From sequence record OR352947.1: a stretch of 64,000 nt of DNA; one strand, given 5' to 3'. This DNA comes from Escherichia phage AV117. Position numbers and translations under genes: made by a program. Each line of letters opens with the position of its first letter. The first letter of the stretch is position 1. Below the pieces are notes generated by a model. It saw nothing but the letters and a program-made list of their open reading frames with translations, searched no databases and was not told the DNA's origin. Below, in pieces: positions 1 to 47,143 of the stretch.

Positions 1-342
1 GTGTTGAAGTTTGCAGGCAAAGCATCTGATTTCGGTTTAGAAATAAATTTAGCGACGTTAGGATATGCCTTAAATGCTTCTTCTGCATCAGTACCACCAG
101 AAATCATAAATTTCCAGAAATCTTCAGCATATTCATAAGAGATGCGATTAATACGTGGGTCGGTCATTTTGAATGATGAAGGGGTATCAACAACTACTGT
201 CATAGACCCAATTTCATTACAACGTCCAATACGAGAATCAGTAACGAACTGTGGATTTTCTAAAATTTCACGATTGACAGCTTTAAATGCGGATTGAAAA
301 TCTTCGGCTTTAATATATTTCATTGTGTTATGTTTTCCCATG
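1..342 (-). CDS. hypothetical protein, N-terminal fragment (gene continues past window edge)
   Basis: ATG at 342..340 on minus strand, frame open to position 1 (114 codons, MGKHNTMKYIKAEDF...); only weak DxRxG/VVDTP resemblance to thymidylate-synthase-like dNMP hydroxymethylase N-termini. Confidence 0.4.
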
Positions 343-21861: not shown

Positions 21862-22041
21862 TTAGTAAACGTTATAAAAGTCTCGATGAAAACGTTTATA
21901 TTGGCGAATCATTCTTTTAGTAGGACGTGTTACCGAAATGATTGAAGTCCTCATGTTCGGATTGTTTGGAGCACCAATTATAACAAATTTCCAAGATTTT
22001 TGACCGTTTGTTCTTTCGCCAAAAAATAATGCAGTTTTCAT
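21862..22041 (-). CDS. hypothetical small basic protein (paralog of 22466..22663)
   Basis: 59 aa MKTALFFGERTNGQKSWKFVIIGAPNNPNMRTSIISVTRPTKRMIRQYKRFHRDFYNVY; shares VxRPTKR...KR.HR.FY tail with 22466..22663. Confidence 0.45.
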   Translation of the reverse strand: MKTALFFGERTNGQKSWKFVIIGAPNNPNMRTSIISVTRPTKRMIRQYKRFHRDFYNVY

Positions 22042-22465: not shown

Positions 22466-22663
22466 TCAATATTCTCTATAAAAGTTACGATGAGAACGTT
22501 TAGCTTTGCGAAGCTGACGTTTAGTAGGACGAACTGTAAATGGTTGTCCAGAGAAAAAATTTGGTTCAGTTTTAATCAACACATACCAATCGTGTTCGCC
22601 GCTTTTTAATAAACGATATAACAATTTAACTTGCATAATAATCTCTTCCAATTTCCAAATCAA
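22466..22663 (-). CDS. hypothetical small basic protein (paralog of 21862..22041)
   Basis: 65 aa; C-terminal FTVRPTKRQLRKAKRSHRNFYREY. Confidence 0.5.
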   Translation of the reverse strand: MIWKLEEIIMQVKLLYRLLKSGEHDWYVLIKTEPNFFSGQPFTVRPTKRQLRKAKRSHRNFYREY

Positions 22664-22764: not shown

Positions 22765-23121
22765 TTAACCCCGGAGTTTATTGAGCTCTTCATAATCAAT
22801 CCAGGATTCTAGCCCTGACGGCAGGTCACATTCAATGTTCCACAGAAGCTCTTCAACGGCTTGCAGGCGATTATATTCTTCAACGGTAATGGTAACCATT
22901 GGTGCAACCGGTTCCGCCTTTTTAACCATCATATCGTTCATCAGGACGTAAAGGTCATCACGAACGACGGTGTCGTTCCAACCCCATGATTTGGCTTCGT
23001 AAGCTAATGATGAAGGGAGCACATTTAAAACTTCAATAATAGTTGGAGCATCAGGACCAAGTTCATTGGCACAAACTTCGTATACATCTTGGAAATCTTT
23101 AAGATTTAATGAATATGTCAT
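22765..23121 (-). CDS. hypothetical protein
   Basis: 118 aa ORF; stop overlaps nrdC start region. Confidence 0.5.
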   Translation of the reverse strand: MTYSLNLKDFQDVYEVCANELGPDAPTIIEVLNVLPSSLAYEAKSWGWNDTVVRDDLYVLMNDMMVKKAEPVAPMVTITVEEYNRLQAVEELLWNIECDLPSGLESWIDYEELNKLRG

Positions 23122-23396
23122 TTAAAATATTCTCGCAGTTGGTCAAATCCACCAATATGACTTCCATCAGGAGCAAACACTTGAGGCATAGTCAATCCGA
23201 CTTGTGATTCACGTCCAAGCTTAACCAGAAGCTCAGCAATTTTCTCATCATCAAAAACACCTTTTTCTGGCATAACATTAATGAATTCGAATGGCTGTTT
23301 CTTAACAGTCAGCAATCGTTTCGCATTATCACAATAAATGCATTTATGAATAGTAGAGTCATACCCGTACACTTTAAACATTATTTTTCCTTTCAT
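23118..23396 (-). CDS. nrdC: thioredoxin/glutaredoxin NrdC
   Basis: CIYC active site; MFKVYGYDS...HKCIYCDNAKRLLTVKKQPFEFIN matches T4 thioredoxin closely. Confidence 0.92.
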   Translation of the reverse strand: MKGKIMFKVYGYDSTIHKCIYCDNAKRLLTVKKQPFEFINVMPEKGVFDDEKIAELLVKLGRESQVGLTMPQVFAPDGSHIGGFDQLREYFK

Positions 23397-23787
23397 CGAT
23401 TAAATATGTAATGCCAAATACAATACATGTAATAAAACCTGTGATACAGATAGAAACCAACAACACTGTACCAAAGAACCAAATCAAGTTATCTTTAGTA
23501 GTTTGTTTGATATCCATCTCACGAATTTCTATAGCTATCGTATCACCTTTATTCAGAAGCGTATAAAACGACGGTGATACATGCCTGTCAAAAACACGGC
23601 CTTGTTCATCTTTATAAACTGCAATAAATTCCAATTTAGAATATTTTCCTGTAGATTGGCCTGAGATTAATTCCACTACCTCCACAGGAATTACTTTAGT
23701 TTCCATGTAAGTATTCTGGCTGTTCCAAATGAATGGAATAATAGCAAAAACTAAAGCTGCGATAAAACAACGAAGGCTATATCTCAT
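23374..23787 (-). CDS. hypothetical membrane protein
   Basis: 137 aa; N-terminal and C-terminal hydrophobic segments. Confidence 0.5.
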   Translation of the reverse strand: MRYSLRCFIAALVFAIIPFIWNSQNTYMETKVIPVEVVELISGQSTGKYSKLEFIAVYKDEQGRVFDRHVSPSFYTLLNKGDTIAIEIREMDIKQTTKDNLIWFFGTVLLVSICITGFITCIVFGITYLIDERKNNV

Positions 23788-24092
23788 TATAATGTTCTCT
23801 CAAATTTGTGGAAGCATTTACGGCATTTCAATTTCAAGTTATCAGTGGTCCAGTTAACCAGTTGGACTTGGATAGTTCCACATTCCGGGCACGGATGTTT
23901 TGCTGCCGTTTTGGCAGCATTTTCACGTCGTTCAACCATTTTCATTATTTCGTTCCATGCCGGAGGAACGAACTCTCCTTCACCGTGGATTTTATCTCGC
24001 TGAACAAATTCAATCTTTGAACTATCGTCAATAAACTTAACCAAGCCGTGATTAGTGCTCATATCAATATCCTCTAAAAGACGTAGTTTCAT
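23787..24092 (-). CDS. hypothetical zinc-ribbon protein
   Basis: 101 aa; CPECG...CRKC four-Cys motif. Confidence 0.5.
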   Translation of the reverse strand: MKLRLLEDIDMSTNHGLVKFIDDSSKIEFVQRDKIHGEGEFVPPAWNEIMKMVERRENAAKTAAKHPCPECGTIQVQLVNWTTDNLKLKCRKCFHKFERTL

Positions 24093-25036
24093 TATAAAAC
24101 CTCAATGGCATTTCGTAAACCATCAGCTTTTGCATTCAGAGCTTTTAATGATTTAGTTTGTTCTGCAATCTGGGCTTCGACTTCTTTCAGGCGAGATTTG
24201 AGATATTCGCGTTCTTCTCTTAAGTTATCAACTTTTTCTGCTTTAGGCTCTTTAATAGGCTTATACTCGTTAGGGTTCTTCAACTTAATTTGAATGCGAG
24301 AACTGTATAACATTGAACCATTATCTTCGGTTTCATCATACATTTCTACCACGTCCATGATTCTTAACATCATGCGAAGTTTATAAGACAGCGAACGAAT
24401 GGTTTTGTTGTGCTTATTAATTTCTTCGGCTTTCATGGTACCGAGATTACGTGAGTAGTAATAAGGAACCTGGATATCAATTGATAATGATGCGGTACCA
24501 TTACCTGTTGGTTTGAACACTGCAGTAACCCAATCTTTAGCATGAACTGTATTTGTACGATCATCGCCACCTGTGAATAATTTACGTGAATGTTTAAAAA
24601 GCATATTCACTTGGTTATTGAATTCACAAGCAAATTTATCAGCAAATTTAGTTTCAGGAATGGTAGTTAACCAATCAGCCAAATGAGTCTTTTTAACATC
24701 ATTAACAATAGTGAATTCAACCAAATCGGTTTTAGATGTCACAGATTTAATAAAGCTCGGCTTCATAAAGTTTTTAATGTTATCGCGAGCTACAGTAGAA
24801 GATAATAAACGAGAACGTTTGAACCATTGAAGCAGTGTCCCTAATGAATGAGAATACGCATTCTGAGTATCTTTACAGATATGATTTTCTTGGCCTGTGT
24901 ATGTACCAAAATCGCGAAGAATACCACTTACTACATCTCGGTGTGGAACATCAAATCCTAGTGCACCAGTAGCGCGCTGAGCATGAACGTTAGCGATAAG
25001 ACCTGCAAAATAATCAATGTAATGTGAACGTGTCAT
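24092..25036 (-). CDS. hypothetical protein with C-terminal coiled coil (paralog family member 1)
   Basis: 314 aa; C-terminal heptad-rich tail; own upstream early promoter. Confidence 0.55.
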   Translation of the reverse strand: MTRSHYIDYFAGLIANVHAQRATGALGFDVPHRDVVSGILRDFGTYTGQENHICKDTQNAYSHSLGTLLQWFKRSRLLSSTVARDNIKNFMKPSFIKSVTSKTDLVEFTIVNDVKKTHLADWLTTIPETKFADKFACEFNNQVNMLFKHSRKLFTGGDDRTNTVHAKDWVTAVFKPTGNGTASLSIDIQVPYYYSRNLGTMKAEEINKHNKTIRSLSYKLRMMLRIMDVVEMYDETEDNGSMLYSSRIQIKLKNPNEYKPIKEPKAEKVDNLREEREYLKSRLKEVEAQIAEQTKSLKALNAKADGLRNAIEVL

Positions 25037-25064
25037 AATATTTTCCTCTCGTTAAGATAGAAAG

Positions 25065-25094
25065 ATTATACTCCAACCATCCTTGGTTGTAAAC
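25065..25094 (-). promoter_or_regulatory. early-type promoter
   Basis: minus-strand GTTTAC-N18-TATAAT with embedded CAACCA/TGGTTG inverted repeat. Confidence 0.5.
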
Positions 25095-25098
25095 TGAT

Positions 25099-26031
25099 TT
25101 ATGATTTTAATGCATTCATTGCGTTAAAAAGTTTAGAGTACTGCAACTGGAGCTTGGTAACTACTTGTTGAGCATCACGAAGCTTAGCTTGTGCTTTGTC
25201 AAGTTCAACAGACAGTTGGTCCGCAGTGGCTTTGATTTGATTATAATAGTAATCTTCGGCAGGAAGAAGACCGTTAGAGATTTCCAGTTTAGTCGACGGT
25301 GTGCCATTAAACATAACAGGTTGTGCTGAAGCCGCATTAATCTTACCGATAGTCGGGGCGACAATAATTGACGCTTCGAACGTTGCATTTTCCTTTTTAA
25401 GATTTTTATAATATTCAGAGTCTTTGTGCCACCATGGCGCAGGAACCTTTTTACCAATAGATACACGAGCCTGGATAGCGATATGGCCCTTATTCTTGAT
25501 AACGTCGATAATATTAAGCTCACGAGAATAAATTGCTTTAATCTGGTAAATATTATCACCTAACACTTCCAACGCTTGGTGGAATACACGAGCAACGTTA
25601 TCATTCTTAGGTTTATACGTAAGAGTGAACTCGTTCTCACTGATAACCATGATTTCTAACTTATCGTAAGTATATTTCAAATGTTTCATGTTAATTGCTT
25701 GAGGACGAATACGAGAAGCAATGGCCATCAGATTGTTAAGGTTATTTCTGAACTGTTTAGCAAAATATTGTCCTTCACCGCCAATACAAAAATTACGAAG
25801 TTTCTGTTTGGCTAATAAACGACTGAACTCGCCATTTTTAATGAACTCTTTAACTGGTGTGTTAGTAACGCATTCAAATTGAGTAAACTTACGAGAAGTA
25901 ATCCCATAATATGAACAGATTTCCTCAATCTCTTCAGGAGTCTTTACAGGCATACGGATAGGATTAGGTCCTGGGGTATATGCGTTCGAGGTAAATTCTT
26001 TGATAAGTTCTCTACGTGTAATAAAAGCCAT
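25099..26031 (-). CDS. hypothetical protein with C-terminal coiled coil (paralog family member 2)
   Basis: 310 aa; NNLMAIASRIR block resembles FMAVSARLQ of 26087..27082. Confidence 0.55.
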   Translation of the reverse strand: MAFITRRELIKEFTSNAYTPGPNPIRMPVKTPEEIEEICSYYGITSRKFTQFECVTNTPVKEFIKNGEFSRLLAKQKLRNFCIGGEGQYFAKQFRNNLNNLMAIASRIRPQAINMKHLKYTYDKLEIMVISENEFTLTYKPKNDNVARVFHQALEVLGDNIYQIKAIYSRELNIIDVIKNKGHIAIQARVSIGKKVPAPWWHKDSEYYKNLKKENATFEASIIVAPTIGKINAASAQPVMFNGTPSTKLEISNGLLPAEDYYYNQIKATADQLSVELDKAQAKLRDAQQVVTKLQLQYSKLFNAMNALKS

Positions 26032-26057
26032 TTTATATTCCTCATGTTGAAAAATTT

Positions 26058-26087
26058 ATTATACTCCAACCATCCCTGGTTGTACAT
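26058..26087 (-). promoter_or_regulatory. early-type promoter (variant -35)
   Basis: near-copy of the 25065 cassette (ttatactccaaccatccctggttgtaca). Confidence 0.45.
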
Positions 26088-27082
26088 CATTCCTTAAGAA
26101 GTTTTACTACTTGAATAAGATTAGCTCGTTCCGTTTTATTTTTACCATTTAAGCCTGCTAATCGTGAGATTTCATCATCAGTCTGTTGAATAGTTACATT
26201 AAGTTCGTTAATCAAAGCTTCAAAGTATTTGATTTGCTCAGCATGTTTTGATTCAAATTTCTGAACCGGAATAACGTCTTGGTTCAGTTCATCAATAAGG
26301 TCTTTAAGAGCATCTTCTTGGTTGATATCATATTCAACTTCTTTTATTTCTTCAACGAGCTCGTCTTTATATCTAACGTCTTTTAGTCCTGGTGCTGGTC
26401 CTGAAATCTCTTCTTTAAGAGTACAAACATATCCAATACGGTATCCAATGCCGTCTCGCTTGATATCAACTTCGTCAATAAATCCACAATGTTTAAGACC
26501 AGAGCCGATTAGGTCAAAATATCCTTGACGTCGTCCTTCAAACGTTACACGAACTACTAAGACAGTTTTACCTGCAACCTTTTGAAGCTCACATTTATAA
26601 AAGTTTGTTGAACCTGAATACCGTGGATGAGTTTTAAAGTTCATCTGACGATCTAGGCCCATTTGTAAGCGTGCTGATACGGCCATAAAACGTGTTTGGT
26701 TCTCGTTAAGATGAGCAACAATCCATTTCAAAGGCATTTTACACTGTTCACGACCGAACAAATCAGTACGTCCTAGATTACGCAGAATGTTGTTAGAGTT
26801 AATCATCGACAGAACGTTAAGTTTATTCAGCGCGCTGAAGATTCCATCAGCCATTGATTTTCCGTAACCTTTACACGCTTTAATAAGCGCTCGCGGTAGA
26901 TTAGTATAAATTTCAGACGGCATATGAAAATCAAATTTACTAGTCAGTAATTGATGAACTTGGATAGCAATTTGCTCATAATTAAGTGCTCTGCGATCAT
27001 TATGGTCTTTAAACCACACTTTAATCTGTGAAGCACATAAACCGTTAATTTCATGTTTTACCGCATCAGATGTAATGCTCAT
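26087..27082 (-). CDS. hypothetical protein with C-terminal coiled coil (paralog family member 3)
   Basis: 331 aa; C-terminal heptad-rich tail. Confidence 0.55.
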   Translation of the reverse strand: MSITSDAVKHEINGLCASQIKVWFKDHNDRRALNYEQIAIQVHQLLTSKFDFHMPSEIYTNLPRALIKACKGYGKSMADGIFSALNKLNVLSMINSNNILRNLGRTDLFGREQCKMPLKWIVAHLNENQTRFMAVSARLQMGLDRQMNFKTHPRYSGSTNFYKCELQKVAGKTVLVVRVTFEGRRQGYFDLIGSGLKHCGFIDEVDIKRDGIGYRIGYVCTLKEEISGPAPGLKDVRYKDELVEEIKEVEYDINQEDALKDLIDELNQDVIPVQKFESKHAEQIKYFEALINELNVTIQQTDDEISRLAGLNGKNKTERANLIQVVKLLKE

Positions 27083-27144
27083 AACTATTTCCTCAGATTG
27101 AATTGGAACTCAAAACCATTATAACCCGTCCTTGGGTAAAGCGT

Positions 27145-27672
27145 TTATGCGTGAACCGTCTTTAAACGTTCTTCAAATTTCCGAAGAGTACTAATACGTT
27201 CTGCTTTCTGTTTTGTATAGTTTGCAATACGTTCTGAAGTGAGAGCGTATCGTTCATTTACTGTTTCTTTCATGAAGTCAGGGATTTCACGAGAAGCTTT
27301 AATTTCATCAAACTTATCGAGTACTGCCTGGTCTTCAGCGATTAAATTTTCGTACATCTCGATATCTTTCTTGATAAACTCGATATCTTCCTGGGTTACT
27401 TTGGATAAACGAGATGCTTTATCCTTTTTGTACTGCTCGTTAGTTTCACGAGACCAGAATAATGTACGTTTTTTGTTAGTGTTTTTGTAGACTTCCACAA
27501 TTCCAACTGAATCGATGATAGCAATCCAATTCCAGCGAGATTTGAAAATCTGACCTCCGTCTACGGTAATCTCGTTACCATAAGCAACGTCATTAAAGAA
27601 CTTGCTTTGTGCTTCAGATTTAAATTTACCGTCGTTATAATTTACCAGGTTGAAAATATCTTTAGCGTTCAT
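27145..27672 (-). CDS. hypothetical protein
   Basis: 175 aa ORF with helical C-terminus. Confidence 0.5.
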   Translation of the reverse strand: MNAKDIFNLVNYNDGKFKSEAQSKFFNDVAYGNEITVDGGQIFKSRWNWIAIIDSVGIVEVYKNTNKKRTLFWSRETNEQYKKDKASRLSKVTQEDIEFIKKDIEMYENLIAEDQAVLDKFDEIKASREIPDFMKETVNERYALTSERIANYTKQKAERISTLRKFEERLKTVHA

Positions 27673-27699
27673 GTTTTACCTCCAGTAGTTGATAGGTCT

Positions 27700-27728
27700 A
27701 TAATAACATAACCATAGACCTTGTAAAC
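27700..27728 (-). promoter_or_regulatory. early-type promoter
   Basis: minus-strand GTTTAC-N17-TATTAT; AGGTCTAT/ATAGACCT inverted repeat spans the -10. Confidence 0.55.
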
Positions 27729-27730
27729 AA

Positions 27731-28018
27731 CTAAAAGAAACTTTTTTCGGTATTTTTTCCACTGAACCAAACCGATTTCGGAATTTTCTGTAATTTTTCA
27801 GATTTAAGTTTCTCTTCCTGTTCTTTCTTATATGCATCCTTGTCGTACTGGAACAACTCTAGGGCATTCTTTTGCAAACGATCTAAGGTAATTAAGGCTT
27901 TAGTTTTTCCTTTCAAGGAAGAGTCCTGGCGAACCTCCTCGCTGTATTGCATCGTAGAACTAACCATACGATGAGCATACAGTTCGACTGCGGCTTTAAT
28001 TTTTTGCATAAAATCCAT
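27731..28018 (-). CDS. hypothetical protein
   Basis: 95 aa ORF. Confidence 0.45.
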   Translation of the reverse strand: MDFMQKIKAAVELYAHRMVSSTMQYSEEVRQDSSLKGKTKALITLDRLQKNALELFQYDKDAYKKEQEEKLKSEKLQKIPKSVWFSGKNTEKSFF

Positions 28019-28156
28019 AACATATCCTCTTTGATTTGTATACCATTATTTTTAAATATTTCTATGCCCTCAGTAGGTTCCTGGTGTCCTTCTTTGAGGT
28101 AAGCCATATGATTATTCATCTTTATGGCTTTTGTTACCTCAGAACTTCCTATAAGC

Positions 28157-29158
28157 TTATTTCAGTAAAGTTACTTCAGAGATTTCCTCCCAACCATCTT
28201 TATCAGTTGAAATAAAATCTGCTACATAAAGAGCCGTACGTAATGATACATTGCGAAGACGAGATACGTTGGCCTTCATCCAGGACAATGCTTTATACGT
28301 TTCTGCATCTGTCAGACCACGTTTCTGCATCATGTCAGTAGATAATATTACATCTTCAACTCGAACCATAATCTCTTCATTAGAGTGTACTCCGAGGTCG
28401 AGATACACTGAACGAGATACTAAAGCTTGAAGGTGTGGGGCAAGTTTCGAACCGCGTTCTAACTCTTTATCGATATCAACGTTTGTAATGAAAACGATAG
28501 TACCTTCAAACTCAAATTCTTTATCAATACCCTTATCATCGAGATAAGATGACGCAGTGCTCCAGCAAACTTTGCGTTTATCTCCAGTATCTAATGCTGC
28601 TTTAAGAAGGTTCAAGATGTCCATATCCGAGAATACGTCAACGTCGTCGATTAAGAGAACGCTGTCTGCATCACGGTTGAGCCAAAGTTGTTCGTAAAGG
28701 CCAATACCAGAGATTTTACCATTAATGCTTTTGTATTTGATGAAACCATTATCATTAGCATTATTAAGTGCTTTATCCAGAGAATACGTCTTACCAATAC
28801 CAGCTGCACCTGAAATAATGAGTGAACGAATTTTGCCATCGATAATGCCATTCGTCATCATGTTCATTACTTTAAAGCGTTTGTTGATACGAGTTTTCAT
28901 ATCTTCAGTGCTTTCAACAACTGCAACTGGTGATGTCTCAACTCCTTCCATTACGATGTCTGATTTGAAGACCCATACTCCACGTTCAGAACCATCAATC
29001 ATAACGAAAATTTTACCATCACCTAAGTGGGAACATTCAGGATTAAGCTTTGCCGGGAACCATGTCTTTGTGGCAACATAAGAACCAGAGATTTCGTTAT
29101 TACGATAGATACCTTTTTTGATTTGAACGTTGAACATTTTATTCTCCAATTTACTCAT
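28157..29158 (-). CDS. AAA+/P-loop ATPase
   Basis: 333 aa; Walker A GAAGIGKT, Walker B VLLIDDVD. Confidence 0.65.
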   Translation of the reverse strand: MSKLENKMFNVQIKKGIYRNNEISGSYVATKTWFPAKLNPECSHLGDGKIFVMIDGSERGVWVFKSDIVMEGVETSPVAVVESTEDMKTRINKRFKVMNMMTNGIIDGKIRSLIISGAAGIGKTYSLDKALNNANDNGFIKYKSINGKISGIGLYEQLWLNRDADSVLLIDDVDVFSDMDILNLLKAALDTGDKRKVCWSTASSYLDDKGIDKEFEFEGTIVFITNVDIDKELERGSKLAPHLQALVSRSVYLDLGVHSNEEIMVRVEDVILSTDMMQKRGLTDAETYKALSWMKANVSRLRNVSLRTALYVADFISTDKDGWEEISEVTLLK

Positions 29159-29175
29159 TTCGTTTCGATAGGTCT

Positions 29176-29204
29176 ATAATAACATATCCTAAAAGCATGT
29201 ACAC
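29176..29204 (-). promoter_or_regulatory. early-type promoter
   Basis: minus-strand GTGTAC-N17-TATTAT upstream of the ATPase gene. Confidence 0.45.
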
Positions 29205-29235
29205 TACTTTTTTAAAAATATTTTAACCCCCTAAA

Positions 29236-29251
29236 GGGACCCGAAGGTCCC
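29236..29251 (-). repeat. GGGACC-UUCG-GGUCCC stem-loop (copy of 47735..47750 element)
   Basis: cccccctaaagggacccgaaggtcccc shared with 47726..47751; lies 3' of upstream gene and 5' of a promoter. Confidence 0.6.
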
Positions 29252-29256
29252 CACAT

Positions 29257-29520
29257 TTACTTATCGCACTTAGCAACATAATTAGGCATATCACAGAATA
29301 CGGAGCGAGTAACTACTCGGCCCTTTGACCATGCTTCAGTTGCTTGTCCGGCTGTGCTATTAATATAGCTTGATCTAATGTTCTCAATACCCTGAGAATG
29401 TGATGCATTTACAGAACCATTAGAAGTCCCAGAAGACTGGTTACTACCAGCTGCACCCGTGGTAGCACCAACAGAGAATGCCATCATTACTGCGAATAAA
29501 CCAATTACTAATTTTTTCAT
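29257..29520 (-). CDS. hypothetical secreted protein
   Basis: 87 aa; N-terminal signal-like MKKLVIGLFAVMMAFSVGA; Ser/Gly/Asn-rich. Confidence 0.5.
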   Translation of the reverse strand: MKKLVIGLFAVMMAFSVGATTGAAGSNQSSGTSNGSVNASHSQGIENIRSSYINSTAGQATEAWSKGRVVTRSVFCDMPNYVAKCDK

Positions 29521-32293: not shown

Positions 32294-32320
32294 AACGTTC
32301 TCCTCTAGTAAGTAAAGACT

Positions 32321-32349
32321 ACTATAACACAACCTGAGGAGAAGTAAAC
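32321..32349 (-). promoter_or_regulatory. early-type promoter
   Basis: minus-strand GTTTAC-N17-TATAGT. Confidence 0.5.
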
Positions 32350-32359
32350 TGCTAAATGC

Positions 32360-35973: not shown

Positions 35974-36002
35974 ATAGTAACACATCTAGAGGAGAAGTAA
36001 AC
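35974..36002 (-). promoter_or_regulatory. early-type promoter (regB)
   Basis: minus-strand GTTTAC-N17-TACTAT. Confidence 0.55.
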
Positions 36003-47114: not shown

Positions 47115-47143
47115 ATAGTATCACCATCCTTGGTGTTTGTACA
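47115..47143 (-). promoter_or_regulatory. early-type promoter (variant -35)
   Basis: TGTACA-N17-TACTAT; shares ccatccttgg core with 25065 cassette. Confidence 0.45.

Follow-up and report, generated by a model that had tools for sequence, protein, structure and literature searches.

The window analysed here, a 64,000-nucleotide stretch of DNA from Escherichia phage AV117, comes from a Mosigvirus, a T4-type coliphage resembling RB69 and JS09, and is 96 to 98% identical to Mosigvirus genomes. It contains three consecutive ORFs on the (-) strand (g1, g2 and g3; Table 1), whose limits are exactly those of the tandem trio described in a first-pass annotation of this DNA. In RB69-like phages and Mosigvirus genomes these genes are annotated as NrdC.3 (g1), NrdC.5 (g2) and NrdC.6 (g3). 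The trio represents, in Mosigvirus, the accessory-gene array nrdC.3-nrdC.6 of the T-even phages, which is a known kind of array and not a new system.

Table 1. Genes, cassettes, hairpins, motifs and tails at the locus (positions in the window)
Feature	Position	Strand	Details
g1	24092..25036	(-)	314 aa; NrdC.3/NrdC.4 family; phrog_1435, precomputed Pfam PF26897
g2	25099..26031	(-)	310 aa; NrdC.5 family; DUF7235 PF23882, phrog_2351
g3	26087..27082	(-)	331 aa; NrdC.6 family; phrog_2257, precomputed Pfam PF26899
PeSL-type cassette upstream of g1	25065..25093	(-)	TTTACA, 17-nt spacer, TATAAT; 11/12 consensus positions
g1-cassette hairpin	25074-25089		CAACC-AAGGAT-GGTTG; inside promoter spacer
PeSL-type cassette upstream of g2	26058..26086	(-)	TGTACA, 17-nt spacer, TATAAT; 10/12 consensus positions
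g2-cassette hairpin	26067-26082		same stem as g1 cassette, loop AGGGAT
Diverged cassette upstream of g3	27118..27146	(-)	aaaCGCTTTA, 13 nt, TATAAT; MotA-box-like
g3-cassette hairpin	27124-27137		ACCC-AAGGAC-GGGT
g1 motifs 1 and 2	24578..24823	(-)	SRLLSSTVARDNIKNF and NQVNMLFKHSRKLFTGGDDRT, insertion between; residues 72-153; hhalign; model helices 76-90, 128-149
g2 motifs 1 and 2	25705..25854	(-)	SRLLAKQKLRNF and FRNNLNNLMAIASRIR; residues 60-109; hhalign
g3 motifs 1 and 2	26660..26839	(-)	LNVLSMINSNNILRNL and NENQTRFMAVSARLQMG; residues 82-141; hhalign
g1 C-terminal heptad-rich tail	24095..24244	(-)	residues 265-314; heptad score; predicted helix 273-313
g2 C-terminal heptad-rich tail	25102..25254	(-)	residues 260-310; heptad score; phrog_26858 matches 255-309
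g3 C-terminal tail	26090..26242	(-)	residues 281-331; heptad window 281-309; predicted helices 281-308, 313-330

Each protein belongs to a family with members in T4. The match of g1 to the phrog_1435 profile is full-length (E 3e-104), and two T4 proteins, NrdC.3 (E 6e-101) and NrdC.4 (E 6e-168), match the same profile. NrdC.4 of JS98 matches T4 NrdC.4, T4 NrdC.3 and g1. Residues 15-309 of g2 align with model positions 1-307 of DUF7235 (366.8 bits, cut-off 30), which T4 NrdC.5 matches over its full length (420.6 bits) and which is matched by neither g1 nor g3. For g3 there is a full-length match to phrog_2257 (residues 1-331, E 2e-127), a profile also found by T4 NrdC.6 (E 6e-126). An exhaustive HMM search of 1.84 billion proteins yielded only six cluster representatives of the g3 family, so no deep g3 alignment could be made; searching viral contigs with the g2 alignment added two near-identical loci and no depth. 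No functional family emerged for the trio when Pfam, NCBIfam and PDB were searched by sequence, and there were no Rfam matches in positions 23000-28500.

The trio diverges fast relative to its flanking genes. Identity to the T4 counterparts is 56% for g1 (with NrdC.3), 25% for g2 (with NrdC.5; 308 aa, E 2e-9) and 38% for g3 (with NrdC.6; 127 aa, the conserved N-terminal half), compared with 92% for NrdC, 83% for NrdC.8 and 78% for NrdC.10. The order g1-type, g2-type, g3-type is constant in the four coliphage genera examined (Tequatrovirus, Mosigvirus, Dhakavirus and Gaprivervirus).

Relationship among the three proteins

The proteins g1, g2 and g3 are strongly diverged paralogues of one superfamily, detectable at the profile level but not by pairwise alignment. 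BLASTP of the three against each other found nothing (E 0.25 to 3.7), and PHROGs and Pfam keep them as separate families. Early hhalign runs, whose alignments were shallow and made up of close relatives, tied the g1 family to T4 NrdC.4 only, and the g3 runs were not significant. Such results are what would be seen if the three were unrelated ORFans of like length with coiled-coil ends, their shared motifs having arisen by chance. That is highly improbable given the profile comparisons, and for g1 and g2 it is largely refuted. When the cores of the g1 and g2 families were aligned with tails removed, hhalign gave a local score of 35.1 (block-shuffle null 14.9 +/- 2.6, z ~8) and a global score of 39.7 (null 5.1 +/- 3.3, z ~10); none of 60 shuffles reached either score.

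The g3 family, once extended with syntenic homologues, scored 22-24 globally against the g1 family (null 4-5, z 6-11) and 32.9 locally against the g2 family (null 14.4 +/- 2.7). The extended profiles align co-linearly with the other families (z 4-11 overall); hhalign's own probabilities for the g3 links are low (0.5-33%). The motif alignments agree around the g1-g2-g3 triangle. Bridging sequences are recognised by the HMMs of two families: gene 092 of Pectobacterium phage PM2 (PM2_092) reached 22.8 bits with the g2-family HMM and 28.4 bits with that of the g3 family, the maximum over 500 shuffles being 7.3 bits. As PM2_092 combines a g3-like core with a g2-like tail, it hints at recombination between paralogues. 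When the 64 window ORFs that encode 120 aa or more were searched, g1 came second for the g2-family HMM (E 0.0012) and g3 came second for the g1-family HMM.

AlphaFold2 models, which cover g1 and g3 at moderate quality (mean pLDDT 57 and 67) and were compared by means other than direct superposition, agree in the order of their elements: five helices come first, then two further helices, two strands, one helix, another two strands, a linker and a terminal helix. Foldseek targets common to both are E5EYP0 (2e-5 and 5e-6), CBH8 and Aeromonas 65.2 proteins, all of T4-like phages. Because the g1 model is poor at residues 86-185 (pLDDT 24-42), its Foldseek result was used for shared targets only. 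Single-copy homologues adjoin nrdC.2 in Karamvirus, Jiaodavirus, Mosugukvirus and Acinetobacter phages, and the superfamily is confined to T4-like phages (Straboviridae). Taking together the empirical null, these single-copy bridging homologues, the moderate-quality models and the shared helix/strand order, g3 probably joins g1 and g2 in it. Profile-profile search, the check that the first-pass annotation had proposed for its paralogues, thus makes homology among the three formally detectable; neither it nor the models gave a clear structural family.

In the common architecture, a helical N-domain is followed by two conserved helices and a strand-strand-helix-strand-strand unit; a variable linker (residues 221-280 in g2, 221-260 in g3) then leads to a heptad-rich tail of 40-50 aa. 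A shared central block had been noticed earlier in the strings NNLMAIASRIR (g2), FMAVSARLQ (g3) and STVARDNIKNF (g1). The first two do align with each other by profile-profile comparison, as motif 2, but the g1 string belongs to motif 1, where g2 has SRLLAKQKLRNF and g3 has LSMINSNNILRNL; in g1, motif 2 corresponds to NQVNMLFKHSRKL. In the family alignment of NrdC.6, g3 residues 82-141 are the most conserved stretch, and the model helices at 90-101 and 129-139 have pLDDT above 80.

The heptad-rich tails seen in the first pass are borne out. On a crude, home-made heptad score the best window of each of g1, g2 and g3 falls within the final 30-50 residues and scores above the 95th percentile (200 shuffles), and the models of g1 and g3 have long terminal helices there. 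The tails have similar endings (LRNAIEVL, LFNAMNALKS and LIQVVKLLKE), and phrog_26858 and DUF7235 weakly touch the tails of the other families.

Promoter cassettes

A near-identical cassette was said to precede each gene. This is so for g1 and g2: copies of the repeat ATTATACTCCAACCATCC(T/C)TGGTTGTA lie at 25065-25091 and 26058-26084 and agree in 26 of 27 nt, and 100 shuffles produced no match. No copy of it was found upstream of g3, whose cassette shares only the hairpin core and TATAAT with the other two. By their sequence, the g1 and g2 cassettes are PeSLs (promoter-early stem-loops), known elements of T4-type phages in which an early promoter is combined with a hairpin (Arbiol et al. 2010, PMC2839356; Comeau et al. 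2014, PMC4122927).

The independent early transcription proposed for all three genes is likewise expected for g1 and g2, which have sigma-70-like -35 and -10 elements at a 17-nt spacing, but not for g3. Upstream of g3 the TTTAC box lies about 6 nt closer than in the other two, and the spacer of 11 nt after TTTACC does not have early-promoter length. The MotA box follows the rule (a/t)(a/t)(a/t)TGCTTtA, 12 +/- 1 bp upstream of TAtaaT (PMC2988021). The g3 box differs from it by one mismatch (T to C), with the GCTT centre intact, and the same arrangement is found upstream of T4 nrdC.7, JS98 nrdC.6 and VR20 nrdC.6. The g3 cassette therefore looks like a MotA-type middle promoter and not an early one.

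A hairpin is present in the minimum-energy fold of all three gaps. Across 11 homologous sites its stem shows covariation (score 0.69; shuffles 0.15), with four Watson-Crick pair types at one stem position; the hairpins were chosen for at least four pairs, which inflates the 'percent paired' figure. Folding energies of the gaps are unexceptional (z -0.7, -2.8 and +1.4). The cassettes were considered as intrinsic terminators; a pattern scan gave no support and no T-run follows the stem. GGAU in the hairpin loop and GGAG after the hairpin are candidate RegB sites.

Function and comparison with known systems

T4 NrdC.5 is the only member of these families with a known role. A T4 deletion clone regains the ability to plate on MG1655 with dsr1 of ECOR17 when T4 nrdC.5 is supplied in trans (Srikant, Guegler and Laub, eLife 2022, PMC9391042). 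Literature searches on nrdC.5, DUF7235 or an anti-Dsr1 protein returned nothing later than that paper. No experimental work on the NrdC.3, NrdC.4 or NrdC.6 families is known. The first-pass annotation had proposed host-takeover or anti-defence roles for the whole trio. Anti-defence applies to the g2 family; for g1 and g3 it is putative. By analogy with T4 NrdC.5, g2 may itself act against Dsr1, although at only 25% identity the specificity for Dsr1 may not carry over.

We favour, with some confidence, the explanation that the locus is a diverged paralogue array of immune-neutralising phage proteins with their own expression modules. Each gene would sit in its own small module, bounded by a promoter-plus-hairpin cassette, and the products would be pre-replicative, not essential, and serve to neutralise host immunity. 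Dsr1, a SIR2-domain NAD-depleting defence protein, would be countered by the g2 clade (DUF7235, NrdC.5), and g1 and g3 may be directed at different defence proteins or at different variants of the same proteins. The globular part would bind the host protein directly, with the tail making the inhibitor an oligomer.

The similar coiled-coil tails could instead hold the three proteins in one hetero-oligomeric complex, perhaps a host-takeover scaffold, in which case they would not be three independent inhibitors. The gene order kept in all four genera, the like endings of the tails and the weak contacts of phrog_26858 and DUF7235 across families would all fit, as would the finding that nearly all NrdC.8 genomes also have a g2-family gene (132 plus 582 records against 745). 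We regard such a complex as unlikely, since plasmid-expressed T4 nrdC.5 alone rescued the deletion phage (PMC9391042), other genera have a single copy and the laboratory T4 reference tolerates a frameshifted NrdC.6 tail with no obvious harm. The likeness of the tails could be mere coiled-coil composition.

Action on nucleic acids, as host-takeover factors that destabilise host mRNA or bind DNA and are not immune inhibitors, is less likely still. It is prompted by a T4 deletion from tk to nrdC.2, which includes nrdC.3-nrdC.6 and abolishes host-transcript destabilisation; the review that describes it does not name the gene responsible (PMC3014915). The deletion removes about 25 genes, however, no nucleic-acid-binding family was matched in Pfam, NCBIfam or PDB sequence searches, and the sole family member tested acts against Dsr1 (PMC9391042).

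The immune-neutralising array may be part of something wider. A tentative and rather doubtful extension is that NrdC.3/4, NrdC.5, NrdC.6 and the single-copy homologues represent a Straboviridae-wide counter-defence scaffold, with a fold absent from solved structures. The T-even phages would have expanded it to three or four paralogues, with recombination at cassettes or conserved tails swapping heads and tails, and each copy would be tuned to a different immune protein. Although the trio reveals no new kind of system, a single scaffold would be reason to try g1-type and g3-type proteins against defence-system libraries. It would also make the conserved two-helix segment and the variable linker candidate functional surfaces, and the paralogues a natural series for mapping determinants of target specificity.

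The T4 nrdC array has the gene order of g1-g2-g3, but four genes in place of three, as NrdC.3 and NrdC.4 are both g1-type; its reference NrdC.6 has a frameshifted tail. T4 NrdC.5 resembles g2 in size, array position, full-length DUF7235 match, a tail ending in KLxNAxNAL and an early-type promoter upstream. In contrast to g2, which has its own PeSL, T4 nrdC.5 follows nrdC.6 after a gap of 11 nt (frameshift corrected) and so has no cassette of its own.

Garb et al. are said to have found in 2022 that the phage protein DSAD1 blocks DSR2. By analogy, g2-type proteins would likewise be small early phage proteins neutralising a sirtuin-domain NADase defence, but no sequence or fold relation of DSAD1 to NrdC.5 is known.

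Like described PeSLs, the g1 and g2 cassettes are intergenic, lie in a hyperplastic region and flank an ORF as near-identical copies. They have a T4-type -35 (TTTAC(A/T), N17, TATAAT), and a stem-loop between -35 and -10 is a described PeSL subclass. They differ in their loop, which is a conserved AAGGA(T/C), in their stems, which are short and covary whereas those in RB49 are of G-run/C-run type, and in the missing T-run after the stem-loop; terminator activity is only putative. A variant with a MotA box, the 'PmSL', is known from a Vibrio phage, and the g3 cassette resembles it.

Setting and divergence of the array

Positions 23000-29500 of the window are 96-98% identical to many Mosigvirus genomes (RB69/JS09-like T4-type coliphages). 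The three genes g1, g2 and g3 are labelled NrdC.3, NrdC.5 and NrdC.6 in the JS09 RefSeq record, where nrdC.2 and nrdC.8 flank them and the strand is the same throughout. ORF calls agree with the genes and lengths given in the first-pass annotation. The counterpart array in T4 has four consecutive genes: nrdC.3 (308 aa), nrdC.4 (333 aa), nrdC.5 (340 aa) and nrdC.6 (275 aa).

Coordinates of the trio and of associated features (window positions unless a comparison locus, L, is named)
Feature	Position	Strand	Remark
g1	24092-25036	minus	ORF, 314 aa
g2	25099-26031	minus	ORF, 310 aa
g3	26087-27082	minus	ORF, 331 aa
Cassette copy	25065-25091		upstream of g1
Cassette copy	26058-26084		upstream of g2
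Hairpins with loop AAGGA(U/C)	25074-25089; 26067-26082; 27124-27137; 47122-47135
Second promoter-cassette family	27691-27732; 29167-29208; 32312-32353		similar sites near 35974, 42729, 47676
nrdC.2-like gene	23787-24092		zinc ribbon
Early-promoter match	24091-24119		within g1 3' end
Small paralogous ORFs	21862-22041; 22466-22663	minus	59 and 65 aa
Inserted ORF	L005 6101-6377; L006 5980-6258; L007 3375-3590; L008 3382-3597		about 71 aa
nrdC.6 deletion, T4 NC_000866.4	L002 11997-12160	minus	1 nt
Gene 092, Pectobacterium phage PM2	L012 2571-3500

Judged by divergence from T4, the trio evolves far faster than its neighbours: identity is 56% (g1), 25% (g2) and 38% (g3), compared with 92% for NrdC, 83% for NrdC.8 and 78% for NrdC.10. 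Variation within Mosigvirus falls mostly in the pre-tail linker of g2 and g3 and at the N-terminus of g1.

Several local features accompany the array. Compared with Serratia phage PhiZZ30, nrdC.6 of the T4 reference is missing 1 nt (GAGCTG-ATATT versus GAGCTGAATATT); this frameshifts the coiled-coil tail, so that the annotated protein of 275 aa lacks it; intact nrdC.6 encodes 295 aa, its stop 11 nt ahead of the nrdC.5 start codon. An inserted small ORF whose translation is hydrophobic separates the NrdC.5-type gene from the NrdC.6-type gene in Dhakavirus and Gaprivervirus; the VR25, WG01 and KIT01 records annotate it, whereas those of JS98 and VR20 do not. The final base of the g1 stop codon is also the first base of the nrdC.2-like gene, and the 3' end of g1 contains a sequence that matches the early promoter well (TTTACG, 17 nt, TATAAT), suggesting both read-through coupling to g1 and an internal promoter. 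The two small ORFs flanking the pin-like gene are paralogues with a common C-terminal RPTKRxxRxxKRxHRxFYxxY block and a 55-nt DNA repeat (80% identical).

Relationship of the three families

Coiled-coil tails, as originally proposed, were recovered: the best heptad window lies in the last 30-50 residues of all three proteins (> 95th percentile of shuffles on a crude score), and the AlphaFold2 models of g1 and g3 end in long helices. Paralogy was not visible by pairwise BLASTP, which gave no match among g1, g2 and g3, and the proteins are assigned to three PHROG and three Pfam families; it was, however, supported by profile comparison, bridging homologues and models.

Nine Tevenvirinae genomes from four genera (T4, PhiZZ30, JS09, moha, JS98, WG01, KIT01, VR20 and VR25) supplied nrdC-region ORFs, which were grouped into families A (NrdC.3 and NrdC.4), B (NrdC.5) and C (NrdC.6). 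JS98 NrdC.4 matches T4 NrdC.4, T4 NrdC.3 and g1, and NrdC.3 and NrdC.4 are already merged in PHROGs. With tails removed beforehand, A against B scored 35.1 (local) and 39.7 (global) in hhalign, values reached by none of 60 block-shuffled controls (14.9 ± 2.6 and 5.1 ± 3.3); with tails, hhalign's own global estimate was 96% probability (E 2e-9). Unextended family C was marginal (local 21-24, null 15 ± 2), the same 50-residue segment aligning in both comparisons.

Other genera have a lone gene of 294-335 aa directly upstream of nrdC.2, and these syntenic single-copy homologues bridge the families. PM2_092 scored 22.8 bits with profile B and 28.4 bits with profile C (shuffle maximum 7.3); VPA32_085 is a match to C and VMC05_82 to A, and Minot_115 is a weak match to B. 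Adding these homologues to C raised its score against A to 22-24 (global, null 4-5) and against B to 32.9 (local, null 14.4 ± 2.7). Among 64 window ORFs, the next-best match was g1 for the B profile and g3 for the A profile.

The g1 and g3 models (pLDDT 57 and 67) have a common order of five helices, two helices, two strands, a helix, two strands, a linker and a terminal helix, with two conserved motifs on equivalent helices. Both give the same Foldseek matches, namely proteins of 300-350 aa from T4-like phages of Acinetobacter, Serratia and Aeromonas, all uncharacterised. Thus g1 and g2 are confidently regarded as diverged paralogues, and g3, with reasonable confidence, as a diverged paralogue of both.

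PM2 gene 092 has a core nearest the NrdC.6 family and an NrdC.5-like tail ending KLFAALSALK, suggesting a mosaic of paralogues or an intermediate form.

Promoter cassettes

A near-identical cassette had been described before each gene. This is true of g1 and g2, where ATTATACTCCAACCATCC(T/C)TGGTTGTA occurs in two copies identical at 26 of 27 nt (none expected by chance), but g3 is preceded by no more than TATAAT and a related hairpin. Read along the coding strand, (G)TTTACA or TGTACA is followed in the g1 and g2 cassettes by a 17-nt spacer that contains a hairpin (CAACC-A(A/G)GGAT-GGTTG), and then by TATAAT. The same hairpin precedes family members in T4, JS98, KIT01 and VR20 with a conserved AAGGA(T/C) loop, and its stems covary (four Watson-Crick pair types at one position; score 0.69 versus 0.15 in shuffles, at sites picked for ≥ 4 pairs). 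A terminator role is unproven since no T-run follows the hairpin and folding energies are ordinary.

The g3 cassette (aaaCGCTTTA, 13 nt, TATAAT) is conserved upstream of T4 nrdC.7, JS98 nrdC.6 and VR20 nrdC.6. It fits the MotA-box rule (PMC2988021) with one mismatch, so g3 may be a middle-mode rather than an early gene.

A second, more numerous cassette family (GTTTAC..., TA(T/C)TATAGACCTATC) precedes nrdC.8 and nrdC.10 among other early genes. The hairpin loop AAGGA(U/C) contains GGAU, and GGAG follows the stem in early-type cassettes; both tetranucleotides are cut by T4 RegB (PMC3014915).

Function of the array

A T4 clone with compensatory deletions lost infection of ECOR17, which was restored by deletion of host dsr1; plasmid-borne dsr1 protected MG1655 against this clone, and T4 nrdC.5 in trans restored its plating (Srikant, Guegler and Laub, eLife 2022, PMC9391042). 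A literature search found no later work on the NrdC.5 mechanism. Because g2 and T4 NrdC.5 are both DUF7235 members over their full length and T4 nrdC.5 counters Dsr1, the reading with most support is that these are early counter-defence proteins: the g2 type would be aimed at Dsr1-like sirtuin NADases and the g1 and g3 types at other, putative targets. The globular part would bind the target directly and the tail would drive oligomerisation. The anti-defence role first proposed therefore holds for the NrdC.5 family, while for g1 and g3 it is putative.

The tails of the three proteins are alike, as they would be if they held the trio in a single complex, though the probability of this is low. 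A role in host mRNA destabilisation is likewise improbable; it would accord with the T4 tk2 deletion (tk to nrdC.2, 11.3 kb, including nrdC.3-nrdC.6), which abolishes the destabilisation that T4 induces, an effect for which the review (PMC3014915) could not yet name the gene.

Observation and interpretation in the first-pass annotation are both partly confirmed. Earlier work had already described the genes, the cassettes and what one of the families does; new here is evidence for one paralogous superfamily of three families, represented by a single copy in other T4-like genera.
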